A DNA stretch of 64,000 nucleotides from Bacteroidota bacterium (GTDB lineage: Bacteria > Bacteroidota > Bacteroidia > UKL13-3), in contig CANLPK010000004.1 in NCBI GenBank assembly GCA_947492885.1, forward strand, positions 771 to 64,770. The letters run 5' to 3'. The notes below the pieces were generated by a model. The model worked only from the letters and a program-made list of their open reading frames with translations. It was not told where the DNA came from and made no database searches. Position 1 is the first letter of the stretch, and each line of letters starts with the position of its first letter. Shown in pieces: positions 2,876 to 44,587 of the stretch. The position numbers and the translations under genes were made by a program.

Positions 2876-4732
2876 ATGGCTAAAGTAGGGATTAATATTG
2901 CCACTGGCAGTATACAACAAGAAGAGATCATCGTTGGAATTGATTTGGGTACTACCAATAGTTTGGTAGCCTTCATTAATTCCAATCAGCAACCATACGC
3001 ACTAAACGATATGGATGGATATACCATTGTACCATCTATCGTTCACTTTACAGCAACAGGAGAAGTAATGGTTGGAAATGAGGCGAAACAACACCTCATC
3101 GATGACCCGCAACATACAGTATACTCTGTGAAGCGTTTATTGGGTAAGAGTTTCAGCGATTTAGGAAATATCCAACAGTATTTTGGTTATAAAATTTTGG
3201 ATGAAGATTCGGAAGGACTTATCAAAATAAAAATTCACGATAAGTACTATACAGCAATTGAAATATCGGCACTCATCCTTAAAGAACTAAAATCGAGAGC
3301 CGAGCATTATCTTAAAACACCGGTAAAGCGCGCTGTAATTACGGTTCCAGCCTATTTCAACGATGCTCAGCGACAAGCTACTCGCGATGCAGGAAGGCTT
3401 GCTGGTTTAGATGTATTGCGTATTGTAAACGAACCTACGGCAGCCAGCTTGGCGTATGGTTTGGGCTTGGATAAAAATGAACATCAAAATATTGCAGTGT
3501 ACGACCTCGGTGGAGGCACGTTTGATATCTCTATCTTAAGCCTTCAGCAAGGCATCTTCGAAGTGTTAAGTACCAATGGTGATACTTTCTTAGGTGGCGA
3601 TGATTTTGATAAGGCCATCGTAAATCATTGGATAGAAGCAAATCAAAAAAACCTTGATGAAATTCTCGCTGATAAAAGTTTAAGTCAATGGCTTCGACTC
3701 AAAGCGGAAGAAGTGAAAAAACAGCTCAGCTATGTGGAAGAAGTTTCGTTAGAAGAAAATGGATGGAACCTTTGCATGTCGGCAGAGAAATTTGAGGAAT
3801 TAATTCTTCCCATTGTAAAACGAAGCATGGACTGTTGTGAAAAAGCCCTTGCCGACAGTGGCTTACAACTCAGTGAAATAAGCAATATAGTTATGGTGGG
3901 TGGAAGTACCCGTACCCCATTGGTAAAGAAAATGGTGGACGAATTTTTTAAAGGCGCCCTCCTTTTTGATGCCCTCAACCCCGATGAAGTAGTAGCGCTA
4001 GGCGCTGCCATTGAAGCCGATATCTTGGCGGGTAACCGAAGTGATATATTACTTTTGGATGTAACGCCTTTGAGTTTGGGAATTGAAACACTTGGAGGAT
4101 TGATGGATACGCTCATTCCTCGAAACAGTAAAATCCCTACACGTGCAGCACGTCAATACACCACTTCTATTGATGGACAAAGCAATATTAAAATCAATGT
4201 ATATCAAGGAGAACGCGATTTGGTTGCAGAAAACCGTAAGTTGGCTACATTCGATTTGAAAGGTGTTCCAGCCATGCCTGCTGGTTTGCCCAAAGTGGAG
4301 GTGGGATTCCAACTCAATGCCGACGGTATTTTAACAGTGACCGCTAAAGAACTTAGAAGCGGTGTTTCTCAAGTAATTGAGGTGAAACCACAATATGGAT
4401 TAACCGATTCGGAAGTAGAGAAGATGCTGATGGATTCGCTGGTGAATGCTCAGAAAGATGTGGACACACGCATGATTGTTGAAGCACAAACAGAAGCACA
4501 ACAACTCATTTATCTTACCGAAAGATTTTTGGAAAAGAATTCGGGTATGTTAAGTGCAGAAGAAATAAGCGGAACAAAACAAAAAATTGAAGATTTGCGT
4601 GCCTCACTTGCAACCAATGACAAAAATAGTGTACTAAAATATAACGAGGCGCTTAATGAGTATACTGCCCCATTTGCCGAACGACTCATGGATATTGCCA
4701 TTGCACAAGCCATGAAAGGAAAACAGATTTAG
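2876..4732 (+). CDS. hscA: Fe-S cluster assembly Hsp70 chaperone HscA
   Basis: 618 aa. [44 protein letters not shown] and [20 protein letters not shown] fit HscA better than DnaK. Confidence 0.8.
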
Positions 4733-4787
4733 AAACAATTAAAGCAAAACAAAAAATAAATTGCCGCTATTGGCGTTCTCAATAATC

Positions 4788-5486
4788 ATGAATAAGTCAA
4801 ATCCATTACAATACAACTCCACTCCCAATCGATTTTGGGTGTTGTTAGGCATGATGTTGTTTTGGATAACGGCTGCTTTTTCACAAAATGACAATATAAG
4901 TGGTACCGATTTCGATGATAATCCGAACCTCCATCTTGGGGTTAAAGCCGGTATTAATTTCAGCAACTTAAAATCGGTTGAACTCACCCACAAATCGACT
5001 TATATAGGAATGGATGTTGGGTTATACGCCAATTACAAGTTAAATAAAGTATTGGCTTTGCAAATCGATTTTATTGGGAATGTAAAAGGAGCCAATTTTA
5101 ATTATGGTACCGCTTCTTCATTAAATAAACTTGCCTTGTTTTATTTAGACATCCCCATTACAATGCAATTTTCATTTATAAAAAAAGCCAAATTAATCCC
5201 TTATGTTGGAATCATGCCCTCTGTAGTATTCCGAAAAGATGCATATAAAACCCAGGAAGCCGTACCTCAACCAATTTCTATAGGTATTAAGAAATATGAT
5301 TTCGGTGTTAGTGCCGGATTATTATATAAAATGGACCCACGTGTTGGATTGCAATTACAATTCAATTATGGATTGATTGACGTTAATAATCCCGCTCCCA
5401 ATCAGTTAGTCTTACCCTTTTATCCATACCTGGGTGGGGGTGGCAGCATCTATAACCGAAATTTACAATTGAGTTTGGTGTTTTAG
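4788..5486 (+). CDS. outer-membrane beta-barrel (porin-family, OMP_b-brl_2-like) protein
   Basis: Signal-peptide-like FWVLLGMMLFWITAAFSQ, alternating amphipathic strands, and a terminal aromatic (...LQLSLVF). I chose the ATG at 4788 over the TTG at 4761. Confidence 0.6.
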   Translation: MNKSNPLQYNSTPNRFWVLLGMMLFWITAAFSQNDNISGTDFDDNPNLHLGVKAGINFSNLKSVELTHKSTYIGMDVGLYANYKLNKVLALQIDFIGNVKGANFNYGTASSLNKLALFYLDIPITMQFSFIKKAKLIPYVGIMPSVVFRKDAYKTQEAVPQPISIGIKKYDFGVSAGLLYKMDPRVGLQLQFNYGLIDVNNPAPNQLVLPFYPYLGGGGSIYNRNLQLSLVF

Positions 5487-5505
5487 CCTTAACGGAATAC
5501 TTTTG
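5474..5505 (+). promoter_or_regulatory. Bacteroidota-type promoter (TTTG-N20-TACTTTTG)
   Basis: TTTG at 5474-5477 and an exact TAnnTTTG at 5498-5505, 26 nt before the ATG at 5531. Confidence 0.5.
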
Positions 5506-5530
5506 TACTCTCTAATTTTATTTTATTTCA

Positions 5531-5929
5531 ATGGATATTTCAGGAAAGTTATCGTTGCACCTACCTATAACTACAGGTGAAGGTAAAAATGGCACATGGC
5601 AAAAAAGCGGATTCGTAGTAGAAACTTCGAATGAAAAATACCCGAAAAAGGTATGCTTCACTACTTGGGGTGACACCATCGCACAATCTCAGGTATTTCA
5701 AGCTGGTGAAGAGGTGAAGGTGAGTTTTGATGTGGAATCGAGAGAATATCAAGGTAAATGGTACAGTGATATCAAGGCTTGGAAAGTAGAACGCAATGCA
5801 GGTGGCACTCCTAATGTAGCACCTTCTACTCCTCAAAATTCCCAAAAGAACAATGCTACCGAAACTCCAGCAAGTTCAGGAAACAACGAAAGCTTTAATG
5901 TAACCCAAGACGACGATCTTCCTTTTTAG
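5531..5929 (+). CDS. DUF3127-family protein
   Basis: 132 aa. GKNGTWQKSGFVVETSNEKYPKKVCFTTWGD matches the DUF3127 core, followed by a low-complexity tail. Confidence 0.6.
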   Translation: MDISGKLSLHLPITTGEGKNGTWQKSGFVVETSNEKYPKKVCFTTWGDTIAQSQVFQAGEEVKVSFDVESREYQGKWYSDIKAWKVERNAGGTPNVAPSTPQNSQKNNATETPASSGNNESFNVTQDDDLPF

Positions 5930-5943
5930 TAAGCATTTTTGAT

Positions 5944-5951
5944 TACGTTTG
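5944..5951 (+). promoter_or_regulatory. -7 box TACGTTTG upstream of the ECF sigma gene
   Basis: Exact TAnnTTTG 26 nt before the TTG start at 5978. Confidence 0.4.
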
Positions 5952-5977
5952 CAACCATATTCCGCTAAATAACTCCA

Positions 5978-6556
5978 TTGAGAAAGAAATTTAACATCAC
6001 CGAAGAAGAACTGGTTGAACTGTTGAAAGACGGCGATGAAAAAGGCTTGGAAGTTTTATATCAAAACTATTCGAAAGCCTTATACAATGTTATTTTTCAA
6101 ATTGTACGTAGCGACGAAATGGCCGAAGAAGCTTTGCAAGATGGCTTCTTAAAAATTTGGAAAAACGCCTCAAGCTACGATAAAAGCAAGGGCACCATCT
6201 TTACATGGATGCTTAATATTTGCCGCAATATCGCCATCGATAAAACACGTAGCAAAGATTTTAAGAACGAAGCCAAAAACCAAAACATTGAAACTTCCGT
6301 AAATGTTGAAAGAGATCACAGTACTGAAATTACTCCCGATCATATAGGAGTAGCCAAGGTAGTGGAGAAATTAAAACCTGAGTTGAGGGAAGTGATTGAT
6401 ATGATATTTTTAAAAGGATACACCCAAATTCAGGCAGCAGAGGCATTGAAGATTCCATTAGGTACTATTAAAACACGAAGCCGAAATGCTATTCTAGAAT
6501 TGCGGAAATATTTTACACTCATCTTAGCACTTATCACAACGATATTAAATTTTTAA
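5978..6556 (+). CDS. RNA polymerase ECF-type sigma-70 factor
   Basis: 192 aa. Region 2 (ALQDGFLKIWKN...FTWMLNICRNIAIDKTR) and region 4 (IPLGTIKTRSRNAILELR) are present. TTG start. Confidence 0.85.
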   Translation: MRKKFNITEEELVELLKDGDEKGLEVLYQNYSKALYNVIFQIVRSDEMAEEALQDGFLKIWKNASSYDKSKGTIFTWMLNICRNIAIDKTRSKDFKNEAKNQNIETSVNVERDHSTEITPDHIGVAKVVEKLKPELREVIDMIFLKGYTQIQAAEALKIPLGTIKTRSRNAILELRKYFTLILALITTILNF

Positions 6557-6560
6557 TGCA

Positions 6561-7325
6561 GTGAACACCAGAGAAATCATAGAATCGGGCAAATTGGAAC
6601 TTTACGTATGCGGCGCACTAAGCGAGCGTGAGATGCGTGAAATTGCCTTGCTTGCCGATTTGAATGCCGATCTGCGTCAGGAAATCTCTCGCATTGAAAA
6701 TGACTTGGTAAACTATGCTGAAAGTTTTGAGAAGGCTCCTAATCAAGCTACCCTCGATAAGGTATTGAAGAATATTAAATCGGGTAACAAAACTTTTCAG
6801 GTTGACTTTAGAACCAACCGATTCAATTGGGCCTATGCTGCCAGTGTCATTGGATTTCTTATAATGGGTGGCTTATCGTACTATTTCTGGAATCAATCCG
6901 AGGCATACAAAAAACAAGTGGAAGCACTCGTTCCGCTCAACGATACCATCAGCAATATCAAAAATGAATTGGCTCATAACGCTTCTGAAATTGAATTCCT
7001 CAATCGTACCACCACACGCAAATATAAATTGGTAGGAATTGAAGGAAAAGATAGTAGCGATAATTTCATCTTGCTTTATTGGTGCTCTTTGAAGAAAGAT
7101 GTGGCCATTAACCCTGGTAATTTACCAAAGCCTCCAACTGGAATGCAATACCAGCTATGGGCTATGATCGATGGCAAACCGGTAAGCTTGGGAATGATTA
7201 ATATGCAGGAGATGCAAATCATGCAAAGTACACCTCGTGCCGAAGCCTTTGGGGTAACCCTAGAAAAAGAAGGTGGCGCATCCGAACCCAATATGGATGA
7301 ACTTAGAGTATTTCGTAAAGTTTAA
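6561..7325 (+). CDS. anti-sigma factor (RskA-type C-terminal domain)
   Basis: 254 aa, starting 4 nt after the sigma gene. It has one central TM segment. The C-terminal YQLWAMIDGKPVSLG...AFGVTLEKEGGASEP is typical of the anti-sigma-K/RskA domain. Confidence 0.75.
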   Translation: MNTREIIESGKLELYVCGALSEREMREIALLADLNADLRQEISRIENDLVNYAESFEKAPNQATLDKVLKNIKSGNKTFQVDFRTNRFNWAYAASVIGFLIMGGLSYYFWNQSEAYKKQVEALVPLNDTISNIKNELAHNASEIEFLNRTTTRKYKLVGIEGKDSSDNFILLYWCSLKKDVAINPGNLPKPPTGMQYQLWAMIDGKPVSLGMINMQEMQIMQSTPRAEAFGVTLEKEGGASEPNMDELRVFRKV

Positions 7326-7340
7326 TTTTAATTCCATGTT

Positions 7341-8354
7341 ATGAAACCACGCATCCTTTCGTTTTTGGTTTCGCTCCTCATCGCGTTAGTGATTTTTATT
7401 TCTGGTGTTTTTTTACTTCATGGCTGGCGCAATGCAGCAATACTATCAAGCATCGCATTCCTAGTTAGCTTTTTTGTAACCATTCTTGCTTTCGAACGAT
7501 TTATTGCACATAAGATAAGTTTGGTTTATAAACTTATTTCCAATTTAAAAATTGGTAAAGAGCTCAAACAGGCACTAGGCAATAATGTTAGCGACGATCC
7601 ACTAAATCAGATTGAGCAAGAGGTAATACGATGGGCGCAATTGAAATCTATTGAGATTGATACCCTCAACAAAATTTCTGATTATCGAAAAGAATTTCTG
7701 GGCAACCTCTCCCATGAATTAAAAACACCTTTATTTAATATTCAAGGATACGTGCAGTCATTGATTGATGGCGGGCTCGACGACCGGAAAATAGCCGACT
7801 CCTTTCTTTTGAAAGCCGAGAAAAATATCGATCGACTCTGCGCTCTAGTGGCCGATGTAGATGTGATGTCGAAACTTGATACAGGTGAAATGCCTCTGAT
7901 CCTTACCAATTTTGATATTGTATCACTCATCAAAGAAATTGCATTCACCCTCGATGAAAATGCAAGAGTTGAAAATATTAACTTTGAATTTACTTCCATC
8001 GATAAACGAGTGGTAGAAGCCGATCGCGAGAAGATGGCTCAAGTAATCACCAACCTACTCGATAACAGTATAAAATATGGTAAGACGAATGGTACCACTA
8101 GTATTAAGTTTTTCGATATGGATAAGCAAGTGCTTATTGAAATTACAGATGACGGAGAAGGCATTGATGAAGAACATATCCCTCGCCTATTCGAACGCTT
8201 CTATCGCGTTGATAAAAGCCGCAGAAGCCAGTCAGGCAGTGGAATTGGACTCGCAATTGTGAAACATATCATTAGTGCACACCATCAAACCATCAATGTA
8301 AGAAGTGCAAAAAATGTAGGTACTACTTTTGCATTTACCCTCAACAAAGCCTAA
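7341..8354 (+). CDS. sensor histidine kinase (two adjacent TM helices, no periplasmic domain)
   Basis: H-box LSHELKTPL, N-box NLLDNSIKY, G-boxes DDGEGI and GSGIGLAIVKHI. Confidence 0.85.
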   Translation: MKPRILSFLVSLLIALVIFISGVFLLHGWRNAAILSSIAFLVSFFVTILAFERFIAHKISLVYKLISNLKIGKELKQALGNNVSDDPLNQIEQEVIRWAQLKSIEIDTLNKISDYRKEFLGNLSHELKTPLFNIQGYVQSLIDGGLDDRKIADSFLLKAEKNIDRLCALVADVDVMSKLDTGEMPLILTNFDIVSLIKEIAFTLDENARVENINFEFTSIDKRVVEADREKMAQVITNLLDNSIKYGKTNGTTSIKFFDMDKQVLIEITDDGEGIDEEHIPRLFERFYRVDKSRRSQSGSGIGLAIVKHIISAHHQTINVRSAKNVGTTFAFTLNKA

Positions 8355-8435
8355 TTAACGAATCAGTGATCGGTAGTTATTGAATGCTTGTTAAAAATCA
8401 TTTTCACTTTTCTTTTTTCCCTACTTTAATATAAA

Positions 8436-9173
8436 TTGCGCACCGTGAGCCAAGCCATAGTTATAATACCCACTTACAACGAAAAAGAAAATGTTGAGCG
8501 CATGATACGTAAGGTGGTATCGCTGGCCTTACCTTTGCATATTTTAATTGTTGACGATAACTCTCCTGATGGGACTCGTGAAATTGTAAAAAAATTACAA
8601 CTAGAATTTTCTAATTTACATATACTCGAAAGAGCTGGTAAGCAAGGCTTGGGTACTGCATATATCGCCGGATTTAAATGGTGTCTTTCCAACGATTACG
8701 AGTATATTTTCGAGATGGATTGCGATTTTAGCCATAACCCCGACGACCTGCTAAATTTGTATCATACTTGCACCACGGCCCCTGCCGATATGGTGGTTGG
8801 ATCTCGATATGTGAATGGAGTGAATGTTGTAAACTGGCCTATGAGCCGCGTTATTCTTAGTTATTACGCCAGTATGTATGTTCGCATTATTACAGGCATG
8901 AGTATTCGTGATACCACCTCTGGTTTTGTGTGCTACCATCGCCGCGTATTAGAAAAATTAAATTTGGATGCCATCAAATTCAAAGGGTATGCCTTTCAAA
9001 TTGAAATGAAATTCAAGGCATGGCGCTCGGGTTTCAATATCAAGGAAGAATCTATCATCTTCACCGATAGAAAAGAAGGTCAATCTAAAATGTCGGGGGG
9101 TATTATTAAGGAAGCACTATTTGGAGTACTCGAACTCAAAATTAAAAGTGTGCTCGGCATCTTAAAAATTTAA
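8436..9173 (+). CDS. GT2 polyprenol/dolichol-phosphate mannose synthase
   Basis: VIIPTYNEKENV and IVDDNSPDGT, about 245 aa. The start is TTG at 8436 or GTG at 8445. Confidence 0.75.
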   Translation: MRTVSQAIVIIPTYNEKENVERMIRKVVSLALPLHILIVDDNSPDGTREIVKKLQLEFSNLHILERAGKQGLGTAYIAGFKWCLSNDYEYIFEMDCDFSHNPDDLLNLYHTCTTAPADMVVGSRYVNGVNVVNWPMSRVILSYYASMYVRIITGMSIRDTTSGFVCYHRRVLEKLNLDAIKFKGYAFQIEMKFKAWRSGFNIKEESIIFTDRKEGQSKMSGGIIKEALFGVLELKIKSVLGILKI

Positions 9174-9179
9174 GTGAGC

Positions 9180-11495
9180 CTAATTTACAAAAGCAATTTT
9201 CGTTTCAAAATGTTTGGTACCATCTCTATTTGATGCCAATACAATATAAATCCCGCTACTCGCTCTACGTCCTTGAAAGTCGTTGCCATCCCATACAGCA
9301 ATACCGCCATTAGAAACCGTTTCGTATACCAGATTGCCTGCTATATCTGTAATTTTTACAATGCAATCTGCAATCAGACCTTTGATGGCGATGGAACCTG
9401 TATATCCAGGGCGAACTGGATTGGGGTAAGCATATACATCACCAAAATCTTCTTCAGCAGTAACCGCATCTGTTTTAAATGTGATTAGTCCTTTATCGGT
9501 AGCAATATATAATTCACCCGTTTTAGGATTGAGTTCGAGGTCAATAATATTATTACTAAACAATGGGCTATTGCTGATATTGAAATTCTTCAATACTCTC
9601 GAGCCATCACTGCTAAAAAGCCATAACCCGTTGCGAGTGCCAATCCATTTTCTATTGGCTCCATCAATTTCAATGGCGGTTACAGTTTCATATTGTAGTA
9701 ATGGCACTCCTGCAGAACCTTCGCGTACATAAGGAGTGCGAGAATCGGGTGCATCTAAATCAAATACTCGGCTAGGACTGCTGATAACCGATACCCCATT
9801 GCCAGTGCCAATCCAAACTTCTCCATCCAAATCTATCGCAACACATTGTACATCTTTACTTGCTAAGGCACCTTGCCCTTTCTGGTCGTTCAATAATCGC
9901 ACATTCACATTGTCACGATTATTCACATCAAATTCTTTAAATGCGAGTAAGCCATTCGACTCGAAGGTGCGAATCCATTTGGTTCCATTATGATCTATCA
10001 CAACCTTTCCCAATACATCTCGAGTACCAAGTAGTCCGTTAATGGTAAAATTTTTCCATGTTCCATCGCTAAGTCGGCAATGAATTGGATAAGGACCAGA
10101 AAGGAAATTCACCGCCCATAAAATATCATCTTGATCGTAGGCTAACCCTAAAACCTTTACGCCTCCAGCGGTTCCATTACGTACTGTGAAATTAGCTGGA
10201 GCGGCCGTGCCCAATACATTCGTGATATCTCCATTTATCATTTCAATGAGTCCGTAATTGAACGTGCCGATATATGTATGACTCCCATCCTTGCTAGTAG
10301 CCGAAACAGCGCAATCACGTAAGGTATCGAAGGCTTTGTAATTTGGAGCATCATAAGGATAATAAATAGGAGCATATTTTTCAATGGCATAAAACTGAGT
10401 GGGGTTATATGCAGGCTCTAGTCTCTGACTATATTTACCACCCATCACCCACATTTTATCATTATTATAATTCAAGGAAAATGCATCATTAAAACGAGGT
10501 CCTAATGGAGATGGGAATCTTACTGAACCATCTGAAATTTTCTTATCAATTAAACCATTGTCTTTCTTAATAAACCAAACATGGTCGTTTGTTAATACTG
10601 CCATCTGAGGAAATTTCTCTACAACATATTGCCGGTTGCCAGCCATATCTTCAATATAAAAACCATCTTCTTTAACCGTGAGTAATTGATTATTGAAAAT
10701 ATCGTATCCAAATAAAGTATGCTTGATATTGGTTTCGTAAAGCGACCAGGTACTGCCATTATACACTTTGTAAACGCTATCTACCTCAGCATAAATTTTA
10801 TTATTGAAAGAAGTGATATGCCCTGAAGTTTCATGCTTGCTGGAATCGGTGATAATACTCCATGAGGTACTGTTGCTTAAATTATCAATACCATTCATAT
10901 TGGCTTGCATTACTCCGAAATTGGTGCTTGTATATATTTTATTATTATTGATTGTTACACCAAACACATCGGGAACCGCGCCCCCAGGTCCAATATTCAA
11001 ATAGGAGTCTTTCACTTCTCTTTGAGTCATATCGTATACTATGATTCCAAAGCTGGTGCAGATATAAGCAAATTGATCTTTGAAATAAACGTCGTGCAAT
11101 GATTTAGTACCTACCACACTATATCGCGACAAATCGGAGACCTGAAATTTAGAAAAATCATCAATACTACTAAATGAAGATTCATTATGATAAAGAATAT
11201 CAATATTTGTACTTTCATATCCTATAAAGAGCGCTTTTGATCCAGGGTCGTATTTCACAATAGCGATATCCAATTCTGATAATCCATGAATCGTATTAAT
11301 ACGCTTTACCTCATCGGTTTCAGTGTTGAAGGAGAACATCCCACTCTGACCACCAATAAATATCATTTGTTGGGCACGAGTAAGATAATTCATATTAGCA
11401 TAGGAGAGATAGGAATTCCACGTTCCCAAGGCTGTTGGTTGTGCCAACGCTCCCAATGAAAATATAATTGAAAGAAGTAAAAATCGAATTCTCAT
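9180..11495 (-). CDS. porZ: PorZ-like beta-propeller protein with T9SS C-terminal domain
   Basis: About 770 aa with a signal peptide, repeated propeller-like blades, and the C-terminal YAYPNPVRPGYTGSIAIKGL...IYIVLASN...KIAFVN. Size and architecture match PorZ. Start taken at MRIRFLLL. Confidence 0.5.
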   Translation of the reverse strand: MRIRFLLLSIIFSLGALAQPTALGTWNSYLSYANMNYLTRAQQMIFIGGQSGMFSFNTETDEVKRINTIHGLSELDIAIVKYDPGSKALFIGYESTNIDILYHNESSFSSIDDFSKFQVSDLSRYSVVGTKSLHDVYFKDQFAYICTSFGIIVYDMTQREVKDSYLNIGPGGAVPDVFGVTINNNKIYTSTNFGVMQANMNGIDNLSNSTSWSIITDSSKHETSGHITSFNNKIYAEVDSVYKVYNGSTWSLYETNIKHTLFGYDIFNNQLLTVKEDGFYIEDMAGNRQYVVEKFPQMAVLTNDHVWFIKKDNGLIDKKISDGSVRFPSPLGPRFNDAFSLNYNNDKMWVMGGKYSQRLEPAYNPTQFYAIEKYAPIYYPYDAPNYKAFDTLRDCAVSATSKDGSHTYIGTFNYGLIEMINGDITNVLGTAAPANFTVRNGTAGGVKVLGLAYDQDDILWAVNFLSGPYPIHCRLSDGTWKNFTINGLLGTRDVLGKVVIDHNGTKWIRTFESNGLLAFKEFDVNNRDNVNVRLLNDQKGQGALASKDVQCVAIDLDGEVWIGTGNGVSVISSPSRVFDLDAPDSRTPYVREGSAGVPLLQYETVTAIEIDGANRKWIGTRNGLWLFSSDGSRVLKNFNISNSPLFSNNIIDLELNPKTGELYIATDKGLITFKTDAVTAEEDFGDVYAYPNPVRPGYTGSIAIKGLIADCIVKITDIAGNLVYETVSNGGIAVWDGNDFQGRRASSGIYIVLASNRDGTKHFETKIAFVN

Positions 11496-38833: not shown

Positions 38834-38865
38834 TTTGGGTATTTAACAAATTACGGATATGTTTG
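38834..38865 (+). promoter_or_regulatory. Bacteroidota-type promoter (TTTG-N20-TATGTTTG)
   Basis: TTTG at 38834-38837 and an exact TAnnTTTG at 38858-38865, 29 nt before the ATG at 38895. Confidence 0.5.
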
Positions 38866-38894: not shown

Positions 38895-39728
38895 ATGAAG
38901 AAATTATCTTTAGTCATTGCCTTTCTTATTGCCCTTGGTAATATCACCTTCGCACAGAAAAGCAAAAAAGGTGCAGGTCCGGAAATAGATGTTCCAACTC
39001 CTGTTCTCAAAACTTTCAACACCAAATATAAGTTGGCCACTAAAACCAAGTGGGCTCAAGAAGAGGACAACTATCGTGTAGATTTCAAATACAACGATCT
39101 AAACATGGCTGCTGCATATAGCGGTGATGGTAAGTTGCTTTATACTGAAAAGGAAATGGCCAAAGCGCAATACAACAAAACTGCGTTGAAATACATCTCT
39201 GAAAATTATGCTGGATATAAAATTTCTTATATGCGCAAGCGAGATACTTACGATAAGAAAACAACTTATATTGCCATGCTAAAGAAAACTAAGGAAATGC
39301 TTGAAGTAGAATTCGATAAAAAAGGCGGATTCATTCGTGATGCTGATAAAACTCCTGTAACTGCTAGCAAGAAGAAAGCGAAGAAAGAAGAGGATGAGGA
39401 AACCTCTACTGACGAGGATACACCAGCTAAGAAGGACACCAAAGCTAAAAAATCTAAGGATAGCGAAGACAATGAAGATGAGGAAGAAGCAACCCCTCCT
39501 CCTGCAAAGAAAGAAACCAAAGCAGCTCCTAAGAAAAGCAACGATGATGATGATGAAGAAGCGACCCCGCCTCCTGCTAAGAAAGAAACCAAAGCAGCTC
39601 CTAAAAAATCGACCAGCAAAGATGATGAGGACGAGGAAGAAGCAACACCTGCTCCTAAGAAAGAAAAAGCCAAACCAGCTCCAAAACCTAAAAAGAAAAC
39701 CAGCGACGACGACGAGGATGATGAATAA
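38895..39728 (+). CDS. secreted PepSY-like (DUF2874-like) protein with long charged repeat tail
   Basis: Signal peptide MKKLSLVIAFLIALGNITFAQ. The N-terminal ~140 aa resemble PepSY-like beta-lactamase-inhibitor-like domains, and the C-terminal half is K/E/D/P-rich repeats. Confidence 0.55.
   Translation: MKKLSLVIAFLIALGNITFAQKSKKGAGPEIDVPTPVLKTFNTKYKLATKTKWAQEEDNYRVDFKYNDLNMAAAYSGDGKLLYTEKEMAKAQYNKTALKYISENYAGYKISYMRKRDTYDKKTTYIAMLKKTKEMLEVEFDKKGGFIRDADKTPVTASKKKAKKEEDEETSTDEDTPAKKDTKAKKSKDSEDNEDEEEATPPPAKKETKAAPKKSNDDDDEEATPPPAKKETKAAPKKSTSKDDEDEEEATPAPKKEKAKPAPKPKKKTSDDDEDDE
39483..39695 (+). repeat. imperfect in-frame tandem repeat (units starting 39483, 39555, 39636)
   Basis: gaagaagc[a/g]ac[c/a]cc...aagaaagaaaccaaagcagctcct recurs, encoding EEATPPPAKKETKAAPKKS twice plus a degenerate third copy. 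Confidence 0.8.
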
Positions 39729-39751: not shown

Positions 39752-39787
39752 AAAACCCTGCAGTATTGAACTTGCAGGGTTTTTTTA
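39752..39787 (+). terminator. strong rho-independent (potentially bidirectional) terminator
   Basis: 11-bp stem aaaaccctgca/tgcagggtttt with a 10-nt loop and a run of 7 T. Confidence 0.75.
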
Positions 39788-39955
39788 TGATTTATAATTT
39801 GGTTTACCTCTATGACTCCCACACTCAATGGACTTTCTAATCTAAATAGTAAAGAAGCTACTAATAAGTTTAAAAGGCTAGGGTAGAATGCGTTCACGAA
39901 ACCCTGGAGGGCATGCGTATCGTACTGAAAAATTCCATTATGCAAACAATTAATG

Positions 39956-39963
39956 TATATTTG
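39956..39963 (+). promoter_or_regulatory. -7 box TATATTTG upstream of the T9SS cargo operon
   Basis: Exact TAnnTTTG 26 nt before the ATG at 39990. Confidence 0.45.
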
Positions 39964-39989
39964 TTATTCAAATTTTAACACTTATCAAT

Positions 39990-42341
39990 ATGAAAAAAAT
40001 TCTTTTGACCCTCCCGCTATTTCTTTTATTCTTCTTAAATAATAACGTAAAAGCTGCTGATATTACTTTTACATATTCTTCTACTCCACAATACATGAGT
40101 GCTATAAATGGTTGTGACAACATTATACTTGATCGAGGTGCATATGTTATAATTAGTGGTGTTACAATAAAAATGAATCCAAACAAATCAATAACTATTA
40201 ATAAAGGGGCTGTCTTGAAAATAGAAAACAGTGGTGCGGATCGCGGCCTGATTACTCATACTGGAAGTGGCACCAATTATTGGAGTGGAATTGACATTAT
40301 AGGTGATAGAAATTATGCTCAAATGCCAGAGAATATTTACACTAGTAATTTCCTTAGCAGTAATAATGCTACCAATTACCAAGCCATGAATCAAGGATTA
40401 CTCTGGGTGGAAAATAGTGATATCATGTGGGCAAACATCGCAGTTAACTCTTCCTGGGGCACTGGAGGTGGGTATTTCCTGATAAACAATGCCGGATTTG
40501 ATAATAATAACTATTCTATTGTTTTAAGAGGTTATTCAAAATTTGATCAGTTATCAAGTGTACACGGATCTTTATTTAATTGTTCTACTTATTTACCGTC
40601 AACCAACTACGACTTCGCTCATATCTTAATCCAAGATTGTTCAAAAATAAATAACACTGGGTTTTATATTGAAGGTTGCCTTTTTAGAAATAGCAACTTG
40701 TATTCAAATCTAGTCGGAGTCTCGGCTCTTAACTCATTTATTAGTATTATAAAGGAAACCAAATTTTATAATTTGAAAATTGGAGTCCTTTCTGAAAAGG
40801 GTACCTATGTAAACAGCGGAGGGTATTTAGGTAGTGCAATTTTTGAACATTGTGATAGAGGAGCCGTGGTATTGGGTGCTAATAGTTTTATCGCAAGTTA
40901 CTGCTTCTTTGGTGTTGATAGAAAAGTAATTTACGGTAACTTCAGTAAATTGGTTCCTGCTAATGTGCCTGTGGGACTTTTTATTTCTGGTGCCGCTTAC
41001 TATCGTGTTGATCATTGTTTCTTTGATAAGGCCGCTGCACAATCCATACCACCTTACACTGTTTCAAATTATGGAATCATCGTTGATAATAATGCCAGCC
41101 TTGGATTTAACCTTATAGATAATAATACGTTTATTCGAGAATGTGTAGGAGTCCAATCTCAAAATGAGATCAAATCAACATTTTTGCAATGTAATGATTT
41201 TGGTATGGGGACAGTTAGTTTAGAAACCATAAACTACGATATTACTGTACCAAAAGGCACCTTACGACAACATTTCGGATGTGGAAGTTCAGGCGCCTTC
41301 TATGATAGACTTCCTGGAAATAAATTCAGTACCAAAGTTCAATTTGAACATAATATTCATATTATTTCGCCCGATTATACTATTCTAAAAAGGTTACAAT
41401 ATAGATGGGGAGGTGGAACAAGGCAACAGCCCCAAGCTGCGAACAATTTAATTAAATCAAATTCAGGTTGTAGCATACCTGGTTGCAGCAAAGGGGAAGA
41501 CGATTCTATCCGTGCTAATAACTTTCTCAAAAGTTTTGTTAGTTACTATGGATCGGCATCGATTTTAGATTCATTAACGAATGTGAACAGCAATGACACC
41601 GCCGAAGTTGAAATGGCGATATATTTTAAAAATCATTTTTTAAATGAATTGGTAAGTAGTATTTCAAATGCTGAGCAATTAGATACCGCCTTAACTGTTC
41701 TGAGAAACGATACATCGCTTACAAGCGCCTATCAATTAGTTATTTTACAACTCAATAGTGGAAATTACACCGATGCTCAAGGTACTTTAGATAATATTTC
41801 TTCGACAACACAAGAAGCATTAAATTTTAAAGGGCTTTATAATATATTAATTCCAGTTTATAATTCTGGCACTTTTGAAAGTTTAGACTCAGTTAGAAAC
41901 TTAATTGACTCCATTGCCTCTGACTCGGATTTTATTGCCAAACAAGCAAAGTATCTGGTTAATTATATTGATGAAACCAATTCAATAATAGACAGTGTTG
42001 AATTTACTCCTGTTTATCTTGACAGTATCTTACCCGATGAAATTATAGATACTGGTGCTGTTGAAGGTAACAACTATGAAATCGTGGTTTACCCAAATCC
42101 AATTCAAGAAAATTTATATGCAGATCTTACCAATAATTCTGGATCTGTTGGGAACTACACTATGAAATTATTCAATTCCTTCGGTACTTATATAAATGAA
42201 AACCAAACTATTATTAATAATACAGAGACCCAAACCTTACATATTGATACTTCGGGTTTAGGTATTGGATTTTATTATCTTTTATTTTATGATAATGATA
42301 ATGCAGTAATTGACAACAGAATTATTATAAAAACCCCATGA
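39990..42341 (+). CDS. large secreted protein, beta-helix-like N-terminal half, T9SS C-terminal sorting domain
   Basis: 783 aa. It has a signal peptide and N/G/S-rich short-strand repeats suggestive of a parallel beta-helix. The C-terminus is VVYPNPIQENLYADL...GFYYLLFYD...IIIKTP. Confidence 0.6.
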   Translation: MKKILLTLPLFLLFFLNNNVKAADITFTYSSTPQYMSAINGCDNIILDRGAYVIISGVTIKMNPNKSITINKGAVLKIENSGADRGLITHTGSGTNYWSGIDIIGDRNYAQMPENIYTSNFLSSNNATNYQAMNQGLLWVENSDIMWANIAVNSSWGTGGGYFLINNAGFDNNNYSIVLRGYSKFDQLSSVHGSLFNCSTYLPSTNYDFAHILIQDCSKINNTGFYIEGCLFRNSNLYSNLVGVSALNSFISIIKETKFYNLKIGVLSEKGTYVNSGGYLGSAIFEHCDRGAVVLGANSFIASYCFFGVDRKVIYGNFSKLVPANVPVGLFISGAAYYRVDHCFFDKAAAQSIPPYTVSNYGIIVDNNASLGFNLIDNNTFIRECVGVQSQNEIKSTFLQCNDFGMGTVSLETINYDITVPKGTLRQHFGCGSSGAFYDRLPGNKFSTKVQFEHNIHIISPDYTILKRLQYRWGGGTRQQPQAANNLIKSNSGCSIPGCSKGEDDSIRANNFLKSFVSYYGSASILDSLTNVNSNDTAEVEMAIYFKNHFLNELVSSISNAEQLDTALTVLRNDTSLTSAYQLVILQLNSGNYTDAQGTLDNISSTTQEALNFKGLYNILIPVYNSGTFESLDSVRNLIDSIASDSDFIAKQAKYLVNYIDETNSIIDSVEFTPVYLDSILPDEIIDTGAVEGNNYEIVVYPNPIQENLYADLTNNSGSVGNYTMKLFNSFGTYINENQTIINNTETQTLHIDTSGLGIGFYYLLFYDNDNAVIDNRIIIKTP

Positions 42342-43153
42342 AAAAAATAATTTCTATTTGTTTTCAACTAGGTATAGTGCTATTGGCCAATTCACAATGT
42401 ACCCGACAAGTAACGCATACTTCAGGGACGATGAATATTGGAGGTATTAATATAAATGTAACATCTTCAGGAATAGTTGATACTATGACTACCTATTGTA
42501 CAAGTACCTTCCCATTTGTAGTTGGAGGACATTGGCCAAACATAAGCGGGATTGGTAGATATATGTTCAGCTTTTCCCCCCCTATTGATTCCCTCACTTT
42601 AAATTTTAGTCAAATTAATGATGCTAATGATACAAATGAACAAGAAGTAGTTAGGCTCTATATTAATTCTGTACATTACTCAATACCATCTCCCGGTACC
42701 AGAAAAGGTTGTGATTCCTTCGCTGTATTAACTCCGTATGGTGATATAACAGGATGTAAGAACTGTGGGGTTGCGGGATGGAATGGTACTACAATTCGAG
42801 GTAAAATTTCAACCTTAACTGTGGTTGACACGACTGGAGACGGACTTGGTTTTGGAGGCTCCCTATTTTCACTTTTTATTTCCAGTCCTTGGGGTAACGG
42901 CATAAAAACTAGCAATAAAATTTCGCCTGCCGTTTTTTATCCTAATCCAATTACAAACAAAACCCAATTAACCGTTCCCGATTTTATTCCTGCACAGGTA
43001 ATAATATACGACCTACAAGGCCTTGAATGTAGGCGGCAGTCATTTAATCATACCATTATAATAAATATGGAATCATTGCCTAAGGGTATTTATTTTTACC
43101 AAATAATGAATGAGCAAGGCGAGGTGCAAATAGGTAAAATTCTAAAAGAATGA
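42338..43153 (+). CDS. secreted Cys-containing protein of unknown function with T9SS C-terminal domain (paralog 1)
   Basis: 271 aa. Signal peptide, then FYPNPITNKTQLTV...GIYFYQIMNEQGEVQIGKILKE. Its start overlaps the upstream stop (ATGA). Confidence 0.6.
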   Translation: MKKIISICFQLGIVLLANSQCTRQVTHTSGTMNIGGININVTSSGIVDTMTTYCTSTFPFVVGGHWPNISGIGRYMFSFSPPIDSLTLNFSQINDANDTNEQEVVRLYINSVHYSIPSPGTRKGCDSFAVLTPYGDITGCKNCGVAGWNGTTIRGKISTLTVVDTTGDGLGFGGSLFSLFISSPWGNGIKTSNKISPAVFYPNPITNKTQLTVPDFIPAQVIIYDLQGLECRRQSFNHTIIINMESLPKGIYFYQIMNEQGEVQIGKILKE

Positions 43154-43192
43154 ATATATTTAAACATCACTATCACCAAAAATAAAAACTCC

Positions 43193-44008
43193 ATGAAAAA
43201 ATTAATTTCTGTTTGTCTCCTTTTAGGAATAGTGCTATTGGCCAATTCACAATGTACCCGACAGGTAATGCATACCTCTGGGTCCTTGAATATTGGAGGT
43301 GTTAATATTACTGTAACTTCATCTGGATTTGTTGATACAACAACGACCTATTGTCTAAACACAATTCCATTTCTAATCGGTCAACATCAGCCTAATCAAT
43401 TTGGATTCGGAAGTTATTTTTTTACATTTTCCCCGCCAATTGATTCTCTTACTTTAAATTTTAGTGGAATAATGGATGATTTAGATACTAATTTACAAGA
43501 AGTAGTAAAGCTTTATATAAATTCGATTCACTACCCAATACCTATTCAAGGTATTAGGAATGGCTGTGATTCGATGGCTATTTTAACACCTGCTGGTGAT
43601 ATAACAGGATGTAAAAATTGTGGAGTTTCTGGTTGGAGTGGTACCACGATTCGTGGTAAAATAGCCACATTAAAAGTTGTTGATACAATAAATAGTCAGT
43701 TTGGAGATGGAGGGTCATCTTTTTCACTTTTTATTTCCAGTCCTTGGGGTAATGGAATAAATACTAGTAATAAAAATTCGCCTGCCGTTTTATATCCTAA
43801 TCCAATTACAAACAATACCCAATTAACTGTTCCCGATTTTATTCCTTCACAGGTAATAATATACGACCTACAAGGCCTTGAATGCATGCGGGAGTACTTT
43901 AGTCATTCCGTTATACTAAATATGGAATCATTGCCTAATGGTTTTTATTTTTACAAAATAATGAATGAGCAAGGCGCGGAGTACACTGGCAAAATTTTGA
44001 AAGAGTGA
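43193..44008 (+). CDS. secreted Cys-containing protein of unknown function with T9SS C-terminal domain (paralog 2)
   Basis: 271 aa and gaplessly colinear with paralog 1. I hand-counted 202 of 271 identical residues. Confidence 0.6.
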   Translation: MKKLISVCLLLGIVLLANSQCTRQVMHTSGSLNIGGVNITVTSSGFVDTTTTYCLNTIPFLIGQHQPNQFGFGSYFFTFSPPIDSLTLNFSGIMDDLDTNLQEVVKLYINSIHYPIPIQGIRNGCDSMAILTPAGDITGCKNCGVSGWSGTTIRGKIATLKVVDTINSQFGDGGSSFSLFISSPWGNGINTSNKNSPAVLYPNPITNNTQLTVPDFIPSQVIIYDLQGLECMREYFSHSVILNMESLPNGFYFYKIMNEQGAEYTGKILKE

Positions 44009-44587
44009 CATTTTGAAGGTTTGAAAATTGAATGAGTAATTCATTACGATTTGTTCAAAATCAATTCCCTGAAAGTTCCGATCAACAATAGTCAAATTTA
44101 TACCTATGGGGCAAATGATTCAAGATTCAACAATTTCAACTCCGCTGGGGTTGTAATGCATTTTTTAGCAATTAATTAAACAACCATAAATTGTAATTAT
44201 GTTCCGATTTCATTCCATATTGTATCCTAATAAATTCTCTAATTTGTTTATTTCTGGTTGAACAAGAGGGTAGTTAAACTTTACTTTGATGTCTCATTAA
44301 TTCATTTTGGGTTGTGCCGATAAGGAATTTCTCAGAAGCATTTGCATTATATTTATGAAAAATTTCACCACGCACCTGCTTTTGTATTGCACACCAATAG
44401 AATTAGATAACAATCGAAACGATATTCATATTGAATCGGCTCAAAGTTTCACTTAAAAATATGTTTAGGTAAGATGTAAAAAATTTAGACCCGAAGGTAG
44501 TGCTTGTAATAGGACACAACGTTTGATTAACGAATTTAATAAATATCTTCGCACAACGATTTCAGCGATTCAAGCGATTAGTATTAT

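Follow-up and report, generated by a model that had tools for sequence, protein, structure and literature searches.

Three neighboring genes in a 64,000-nt stretch of a freshwater Bacteroidota genome (the window) raise the question of whether the secreted proteins that they appear to encode belong together as parts of one machine. A sequence-only reading had described a large protein of 783 aa, translationally coupled to two small paralogs of 271 aa, and had proposed that the three could form an undescribed coupled surface or secreted system. We examined the organization of the genes, the domains of their products, the history of the block and the company that each gene keeps in other genomes.

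Organization of the three-gene block

The three ORFs of 783, 271 and 271 aa all lie on the + strand, in agreement with the co-directional arrangement that had been reported. The product of the large cargo gene (39990–42341, +) begins with a putative signal peptide (judged by eye) and continues with a predicted β-helix, a conserved module that contains Cys and a predicted bundle of helices; it ends in a type A C-terminal domain (CTD). Its stop codon overlaps the start codon of small cargo gene copy 1 (42338–43153, +) in an ATGA that we confirmed at 42338–42341, and copy 2 (43193–44008, +) follows after a gap of 39 nt. Upstream of the block, the previously noted terminator (39752–39787, +) is present as a terminator-like hairpin at 39752–39783 with a 12-bp stem, followed by a T run. 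It is probably the intrinsic terminator of the upstream PepSY-like gene and forms the left boundary of the conserved backbone.

The promoter box TATATTTG is likewise found where it had been placed (39956–39963, +), 27 nt before the ATG, and it fits the Bacteroidota −7 consensus TAnnTTTG. This box is the sole + strand match to the consensus within the block, and boxes like it precede both pgk and the PepSY-like gene by 30–35 nt. Since the window shows no enrichment of TAnnTTTG (90 matches versus 80 ± 8 expected), a single match is weak evidence. Judged from this layout, in which one promoter-like box is followed by genes separated by an overlap of 4 nt and a gap of 39 nt, the three genes probably constitute one transcription unit. 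One transcript from a Bacteroidota-type promoter would then carry all three genes, and translation of the second gene may be coupled to that of the first via the ATGA overlap.

All three products carry T9SS sorting domains

The claim that each protein ends in a T9SS CTD held, and the domain is of type A. The Pfam model PF18962 (Por_Secre_tail) scored above its gathering score of 27 in all three proteins, with 30.0 bits for the large protein and 35.7 and 31.5 bits for the small ones. With TIGR04183 (cut-off 23), the small proteins scored above the cut-off (44.4 and 40.0 bits) and the large protein below it (17.5 bits). The CTD of the large protein (42075–42332, +) corresponds to residues 700–780 in the PF18962 match and was predicted by AF2 to be a 7-strand sandwich. 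As judged by eye only, the putative signal peptides start with MKK and continue with a hydrophobic stretch up to a cleavage site of small residues; in the small proteins the +1 residue is Q. Like known T9SS type A cargo, each of the three proteins has a passenger and a C-terminal 7-strand sandwich of ~75 aa, here preceded by the putative signal peptide. They differ from it in that their passengers fit no described family and in that the CTD of the large protein falls under the NCBIfam cut-off.

The genome encodes the corresponding machinery, including SprA (TIGR04189, 2410 bits), two copies of GldM_1st and PorU (NF033707, 1230 bits). The products would be exported by Sec, and the small proteins would be cleaved between ANS and QC, fitting the Bacteroidetes Q-rule (PMC5837995, PMC10653852). 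From what is known of the family, the type A CTD would then be recognized by the T9SS, leading to passage through the SprA translocon and processing by the PorU sortase, after which each protein would be either released or anchored at the cell surface. Among the long ORFs of this genome, ~6% encode T9SS cargo, for most of which no function is assigned.

The large protein is predicted to be a β-helix protein with its own central module

A β-helix followed by a helical region had been suspected in the 783-aa protein from its short-strand repeats. This suspicion is supported by the AF2 model, by matches at the level of fold class and by Beta_helix/NosD matches in distant relatives. The model contains a right-handed parallel β-helix (40062–41162, +; residues ~25–391) of ~11 coils of three short strands, with pLDDT mostly 80–93 over residues 25–391 and periodic strand triplets in DSSP. 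Foldseek matched this part weakly (E 1e-4 to 1e-2) to phage tailspikes, the Klebsiella K1 capsule lyase and proteins of the pectate-lyase superfamily; matches of the β-helix class reached a probability of up to 1.0 at low TM. The most conserved stretch of the family comes next (41172–41519, +; residues ~395–510), with CNxF, GTL, GC and PGNxFS followed by Y, P and C positions. Invariant columns concentrate here even in comparison with relatives at 19–24% identity, and the stretch is not confidently modeled (pLDDT <50 for residues 406–442 and 488–510). It is followed by an eight-helix bundle in the AF2 model (41520–41990, +; residues 511–667) with sub-threshold TPR-like signals. Weak TPR_19 and ARM matches were found in this bundle and in short relatives that consist of the helical region and a CTD only.

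Outside the CTD, the large protein had no match to Pfam, NCBIfam or PDB sequences, and Pfam Beta_helix (PF13229) and NosD (PF05048) did not match it even at E ≤ 1. These two models scored only in distant relatives (P0039, P0041, P0045, P0050, P0051, P0053 and P0056). Similarly, we found no match to a PL or GH family and no identifiable catalytic residues, and the structural matches were generic. The protein resembles established β-helix proteins (PF13229/PF05048, the pectate-lyase superfamily and the tailspike depolymerases 6eu4 and 7w1c) in its predicted ~11 three-stranded coils and through relatives that do score. It differs from them in that it scores on neither Pfam model, in that no catalytic residues can be aligned, and in that it carries its own Cys-containing module and helical bundle before the CTD; it has no trimerization or tail-attachment part. 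Three T9SS protease cargo proteins, P0041 (trypsin-like), P0050 (S8-like) and P0045 (HEMGHxxxxxH), are related to it at E 1e-8 to 2e-4 and have in common with it the end of the β-helix, the conserved module, the bundle of helices and the CTD. However, the 783-aa protein lacks a protease head, its β-helix following directly after the signal peptide. On the strength of the model, the large protein is a predicted right-handed β-helix of the pectate-lyase/tailspike fold class, with a Cys-containing module and a stalk-like helical bundle.

The small proteins carry a rare, predicted β-sandwich domain and are probably old duplicates

The 271-aa proteins had been said to match no recognizable domain, and our profile searches agree. 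Pfam and NCBIfam scans of both proteins and of all 24 small-family members returned the CTD only, as did profile searches against PDB sequences. The family comprises ~40 clusters among 5.8 billion proteins, all named hypothetical; one member, P0062, has a precomputed match to PF27154.1. In copy 1, the N-terminal domain spans 42398–42892 and the CTD 42932–43147, and the AF2 model (pLDDT 79) shows an all-β sandwich followed by the CTD. Whole-model Foldseek results were mostly two-domain or CTD matches with low TM. The best matches were to the sugar-binding N-terminal domain of GH2, and the order of a β-sandwich followed by an Ig-like sandwich is that of the GH2 N-terminus, a likeness to the galactose-binding-like and CBM sandwiches (GH2 N-terminus, CBM51). 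In contrast, TM was only 0.23–0.28 at 8–15% identity with no relation at the sequence level, and the five conserved cysteines are specific to the small family. As modeled, each small protein would therefore contain a single unannotated β-sandwich domain of ~165 aa with five conserved cysteines, which may be called loosely CBM- or lectin-like.

The two small genes are indeed paralogs, as had been proposed, encoding proteins that are 75% identical in a tandem repeat unit of 855 nt. Because the genome is a MAG of 183 contigs, we considered the possibility that the pair is an assembly artefact in which variants of a single gene from different strains ended up next to each other. The nearest species, G030, has a single small gene whose 5′ part corresponds to copy 1 and whose 3′ part corresponds to copy 2, both at 100% identity, as this explanation would have it; however, unequal crossover or assembly collapse in G030 would give the same pattern. 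Moreover, dS between the copies is 1.0–1.4 in the core, far above strain variation (versus 0.23 in the CTD), a unique 39-nt spacer and the regular 855-nt unit join them, and a third paralogue lies on another contig. An artefact is thus very unlikely. With dN/dS of 0.25 overall (range 0.14–0.27), the copies would instead be old duplicates held by purifying selection, whose 5′ and 3′ ends were homogenized through recombination.

The block is an insertion with the base composition of T9SS cargo

Comparison with sister species placed the block in its genomic context. In G029 and G031, the order aroK–pgk–PepSY-like gene is followed by 145–177 nt and then by the DUF4340 gene and lutB, with nothing between. 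Since the flanking genes directly adjoin in these two species, the block is a lineage-specific insertion of ~4.7 kb (39790–44530; edges approximate) that contains the three genes and non-coding flanks. In both species, which are without the block, the PepSY-like gene is likewise followed at this position by a hairpin, whose sequence is a different one. On the right, the non-coding stretch of 579 nt (44009–44587) ends in ~55 nt of conserved promoter sequence belonging to the DUF4340 gene, with a conserved box beginning at ~44533, and the remainder came with the insertion. From 44009 to about 44500 this stretch is 100% identical to G030. Searched with blastx, the stretch showed no remnant of the small or large proteins or of the 544-aa protein (described below); it has no copy elsewhere by whole-genome blastn and gave no Rfam match. 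Insertion of the block at this site, with the PepSY-like gene on one side and the DUF4340 gene on the other, would have taken place in the ancestor that this species shares with its nearest relative.

The A/T-richness noted by eye is real relative to the genome, as G+C of the block is 0.344 compared with 0.383 ± 0.020 in 4-kb windows (2.7th percentile), and GC3 of its genes is 0.24–0.27 (1st–5th percentile of all genome ORFs). As a distinguishing mark it did not survive comparison with this genome's other cargo genes. The 127 ORFs with a type A CTD have a GC3 of 0.306 ± 0.050, so low G+C is a property of the class rather than of the block, and a 'foreign island' reading of the composition was rejected by this control.

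Horizontal acquisition from an A/T-richer donor has arguments in its favor. The block is inserted relative to G029 and G031, no more than 3% of 4-kb windows have a G+C as low, the distribution of the small family across Bacteroidota is patchy, and a tract that is 100% identical to G030 lies amid a background of 85–98% identity. Conversely, GC3 of the block differs by only about 1 sd from that of the genome's other cargo genes, and the insertion is accompanied by neither an integrase, a transposase nor a tRNA, nor by any convincing flanking repeat; only weak A/T-rich repeats were found, the best inverted repeat being 38 nt with 71% complementarity in A/T-rich DNA. In addition, congeners carry orthologues of the large gene at different loci, so some of the block has moved inside the genus. 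We therefore consider acquisition from such a donor unlikely.

The large gene changes partners

The large protein is found in 5 of the 7 species of the genus and in none of the 112 other genomes of the order (5/119 in all), and only 29 matches to its family were detected in 1.84 billion representatives. The triad, whose absence from other genomes the sequence-only reading had named as one ground for rejecting its proposal, was found nowhere else; in the nearest species, the large gene is accompanied by one small gene only. In three other congeners and at two metagenome loci, the large gene is coupled to an unrelated cargo protein of 544 aa, which replaces the small gene downstream of the large gene in L001, L002, G027 and G031. 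The small family, for its part, is found elsewhere as a stand-alone short cargo gene in varied contexts in scattered Bacteroidota MAGs. These findings argue against an undescribed coupled system.

A weaker form of the proposed system is suggested by the junction itself. The same CCATGA, with its 4-nt overlap, joins the large gene to its downstream neighbor for both the 271-aa and the 544-aa type, and the gene that follows encodes T9SS cargo in all species possessing the large gene. The large protein might need some co-made partner, and one could imagine an obligate two-part surface complex of the β-helix protein and the next-translated protein with an exchangeable second subunit. However, the 544-type partner in G031 is set off by a 9-nt gap, the 541-aa homologue of the 544-aa protein in this genome stands alone on contig C88, as do almost all small-family members in their genomes, and tightly packed same-strand cargo pairs are common here (15 clusters hold 33 of the 127 cargo ORFs, with one more −4 overlap pair among them). 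We consider an obligate complex quite improbable. It is highly improbable that the β-helix protein is a fixed subunit whose partner is swapped at CCATGA and that the ~165-aa sandwich is a new glycan-binding (lectin/CBM) family limited to Bacteroidota T9SS cargo.

From these data we conclude that the three adjoining genes are likely an accessory, lineage-specific cluster of ordinary T9SS cargo rather than a conserved multi-component system. What stands of the earlier description is a probable single unit of T9SS cargo genes, a predicted β-helix with a helical region and small domains without a match; the undescribed system does not. The products are most likely accessory surface or secreted proteins, a β-helix protein with β-sandwich paralogs. 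Their fold class alone tentatively hints at a role in binding or cleaving extracellular polysaccharide, or in adhesion, and the fold matches are too weak (TM 0.14–0.28) for assigning an enzymatic activity or a binding activity.

Although the locus opens no new mechanism, it adds two unannotated passenger families, a genus-restricted β-helix protein with a conserved Cys-containing module and a rare β-sandwich domain of ~165 aa. It also illustrates insertion, duplication, recombination and re-partnering of T9SS cargo genes among close species, which is of use when annotating domains and when trying to understand how the surfaces of freshwater Bacteroidota vary.

Organization of the cargo gene block

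Three plus-strand genes encode a large protein of 783 aa (39990-42341) and two small proteins of 271 aa (copy 1, 42338-43153; copy 2, 43193-44008), exactly where the sequence-only reading had placed them. As it had noted, the stop codon of the large gene and the start codon of small copy 1 overlap in an ATGA at 42338-42341; a 39-nt spacer separates the two small genes. The upstream terminator that it proposed is also present, in the form of a 12-bp hairpin with a trailing T run (39752-39783) directly after the upstream PepSY-like gene. Its promoter box, TATATTTG at 39956-39963 on the plus strand, lies 27 nt upstream of the ATG of the large gene and fits TAnnTTTG, the Bacteroidota -7 promoter consensus. 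Because this consensus shows no enrichment across the window (90 occurrences vs. 80 ± 8 in shuffled sequences), the match by itself is weak evidence. TATATTTG is the sole plus-strand TAnnTTTG match within the block, and boxes resembling it precede pgk and the PepSY-like gene by 30-35 nt.

Inspection of the flanking genes revealed two further boxes. The first ATG of the PepSY-like ORF (289 aa) is overlapped by TATGTTTG (38858-38865); therefore, the true start of this gene may be the Met codon at 38895, which this promoter-like box precedes by ~30 nt. A ~29-nt box upstream of the DUF4340 gene (GAATTTAATAAATATCTTCGCACAACGA, 44533-44561) is kept in three species (the window and loci L043 and L044) and includes a near-match to TAnnTTTG. 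This box is likely the promoter of the DUF4340 gene.

The block is a lineage-specific insertion

In two other species of the genus (G029 and G031) the gene order is aroK-pgk-PepSY-like, then 145-177 nt, then DUF4340-lutB, with a terminator hairpin at the matching place and the conserved box before the DUF4340 gene. Since the PepSY-like and DUF4340 genes are adjacent in these genomes, ~39790-44530 is a ~4.7-kb insertion in the lineage that this genome shares with its nearest relative, the MAG G030. We found no mobility gene or convincing flanking repeat around the insertion, and no gene relic or Rfam match in the 579-nt non-coding tail of the block. The PepSY-like protein ends in a K/E/D/P-rich repeat tail (39483-39634) that is only ~66% identical to that of the nearest species vs. 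87-100% for its flanks, and the ORF is 289 aa here vs. 310 aa there (4726-5658 of the G030 locus L025), which fits repeat-number variation.

The impression that the block is A/T-rich proved correct when computed: its G+C content is 0.344 vs. 0.383 ± 0.020 for 4-kb windows of the genome (2.7th percentile), and the GC3 values of the three genes (0.262, 0.266 and 0.236) fall in the 1st-5th percentile among all long ORFs. As a control set, a profile of the T9SS C-terminal sorting domain (CTD) built from the small-family alignment picked out 127 ORFs with a type A CTD across the genome; their mean GC3 is 0.306 ± 0.050 vs. 0.363 for all ORFs. The three genes fall within ~1 sd of this cargo-class mean (~1.4 sd in the case of the second small gene), which makes low G+C a trait of the cargo genes of this genome and not specific to the block.

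Probable exchange between the small genes

The single small gene of G030 (8267-9082 of L025, contig C6 of that genome) matches copy 1 at 100% identity over its first ~600 nt and copy 2, again at 100%, over its last ~300 nt and the flank downstream. Such a chimera is the product expected of unequal crossover between tandem copies, or of assembly collapse. The two genomes are also 100% identical from 41635 to ~42940 and over ~43900-44500, against a background of 85-98%, suggesting either recent exchange or reads common to both MAGs. For the small paralogues, dN/dS is 0.14-0.27 and dS is 1.0-1.4 in the core vs. 0.12-0.26 in the linker and CTD. From this difference in dS we conclude that the paralogue ends were homogenized; judged by their substitution rates, the small paralogues are old and functional.

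Features of the three cargo proteins

As anticipated, all three proteins carry a T9SS CTD, exceeding the Pfam gathering threshold for PF18962; both small proteins also passed TIGR04183, for which the large protein scored below threshold (17.5 vs. 23 bits). The genome encodes T9SS machinery, including the SprA translocon, two GldM homologues and the PorU sortase.

Searches with the large protein returned very few relatives: three from a collection of 5.8 billion proteins and, at E ≤ 1e-3, 29 from 1.84 billion representatives, about seven of these 29 being close. AlphaFold2, with 11 sequences as input, gave a four-part model (mean pLDDT 71): a β-helix of ~11 coils with three short strands each (residues 25-391, pLDDT mostly 80-93), a weakly modelled stretch (~400-510), eight helices (511-667) and a seven-strand sandwich CTD (696-781). 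This bears out the β-helix, and the helical region after it, that the sequence-only reading had suggested. Foldseek gave weak but consistent matches to phage tailspikes, Klebsiella K1 capsule lyase and proteins annotated as 'pectate lyase superfamily' or 'right handed beta helix'. No β-helix model scored in a Pfam scan of the protein itself, and Beta_helix and NosD scored on its distant sequence relatives; the protein is classed by fold and not by family. Conservation is highest in the poorly modelled residues 395-510, which retain CNxF, GTL, GC and PGNxFS motifs and then Y, P and C positions even at 19-24% identity. Some distant relatives bear trypsin-like or S8-like protease heads, or an HEMGHxxxxxH motif. 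In P0041, P0045 and P0050, the β-helix end, the conserved Cys-containing stretch, the helical bundle and the CTD lie behind such heads (trypsin-like, subtilisin-like or with a zincin-type HEMGHSLSLGH motif). The helical bundle and CTD alone make up short relatives of ~230-270 aa.

In each small protein, a putative signal peptide precedes a ~165-aa N-domain and a CTD. The putative cleavage site reads ...S|QC..., consistent with the Bacteroidetes Q-rule (PMC5837995, PMC10653852). Among 24 aligned family members, five cysteines are conserved (C54 and C125 invariant; C21, C140 and C143 in at least 90%), and the other invariant residues include E103, H113, Y114, W148 and D164. That these proteins match no recognizable domain was borne out by Pfam, NCBIfam and PDB sequence searches, which gave no match beyond the CTD. 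A profile search returned ~40 clusters, one with a type B CTD, all titled 'hypothetical' or 'T9SS type A sorting domain-containing protein'. AlphaFold2 (pLDDT 79) predicted an all-β sandwich plus CTD, with best fold matches to a GH2 N-terminus (sugar-binding and Ig-like), GH85 Endo-A, CBM51 and MAM at TM scores of only 0.23-0.28.

Distribution of the genes and possible partners

The sequence-only reading had proposed an undescribed system of a large protein coupled to small partners. This proposal was not supported: the triad turned up in no other genome, an outcome that the reading itself had named as refuting it. The small family is mostly stand-alone, and outside this genome and G030 the large gene pairs with a 544-aa T9SS protein. 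Among 119 species genomes of the order, the large gene is restricted to a single genus, where five of the seven species carry it, and the small N-domain is confined to this genome (three copies) and G030 (one). The 544-aa protein gene, which has only the CTD in common with the 271-aa family, directly follows the large gene in G027, G031 and two metagenome loci; in G029, the cut-off start of such a gene follows it at a contig end. Small-family genes elsewhere stand alone beside restriction-modification, two-component, toxin-antitoxin or phytase genes, and in seven further MAGs the members are short cargo proteins (261-418 aa) with varying neighbours.

The third small paralogue of this genome (275 aa; 84% identity to copy 1) is a mosaic with a middle like copy 1 and ends like copy 2. 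It is encoded on contig C100, 149 nt downstream of the gene for an unrelated 1261-aa protein that carries PKD domains and a CHU_C (type B) T9SS domain; the two genes together occupy 5824-10585 of locus L012. A 541-aa homologue of the 544-aa protein, whose only Pfam domain is the CTD, is encoded stand-alone on contig C88 (L034, 1048-2673), where its gene is flanked by alaS and by a gene that, named by eye, encodes a MiaB/RimO-like radical-SAM methylthiotransferase.

Cargo genes often cluster in this genome: 15 same-strand clusters hold 33 of the 127 CTD ORFs. Among them, another cargo pair, on contig C171, overlaps by 4 nt, and four paralogous T9SS cargo genes (~1900 aa each) stand in tandem, with 67-72-nt spacers, on the minus strand of contig C25 (1051-24096). 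The AAA-NNN-CCATGA junction is identical before 271-aa-type and 544-aa-type next genes, the one feature that keeps alive the idea of a partner for the large protein. We conclude that the locus consists of ordinary lineage-specific T9SS cargo genes whose passenger domains are unannotated. Judging from their predicted fold class, the proteins would most likely bind or cleave polysaccharides, or act in adhesion, at the cell surface.
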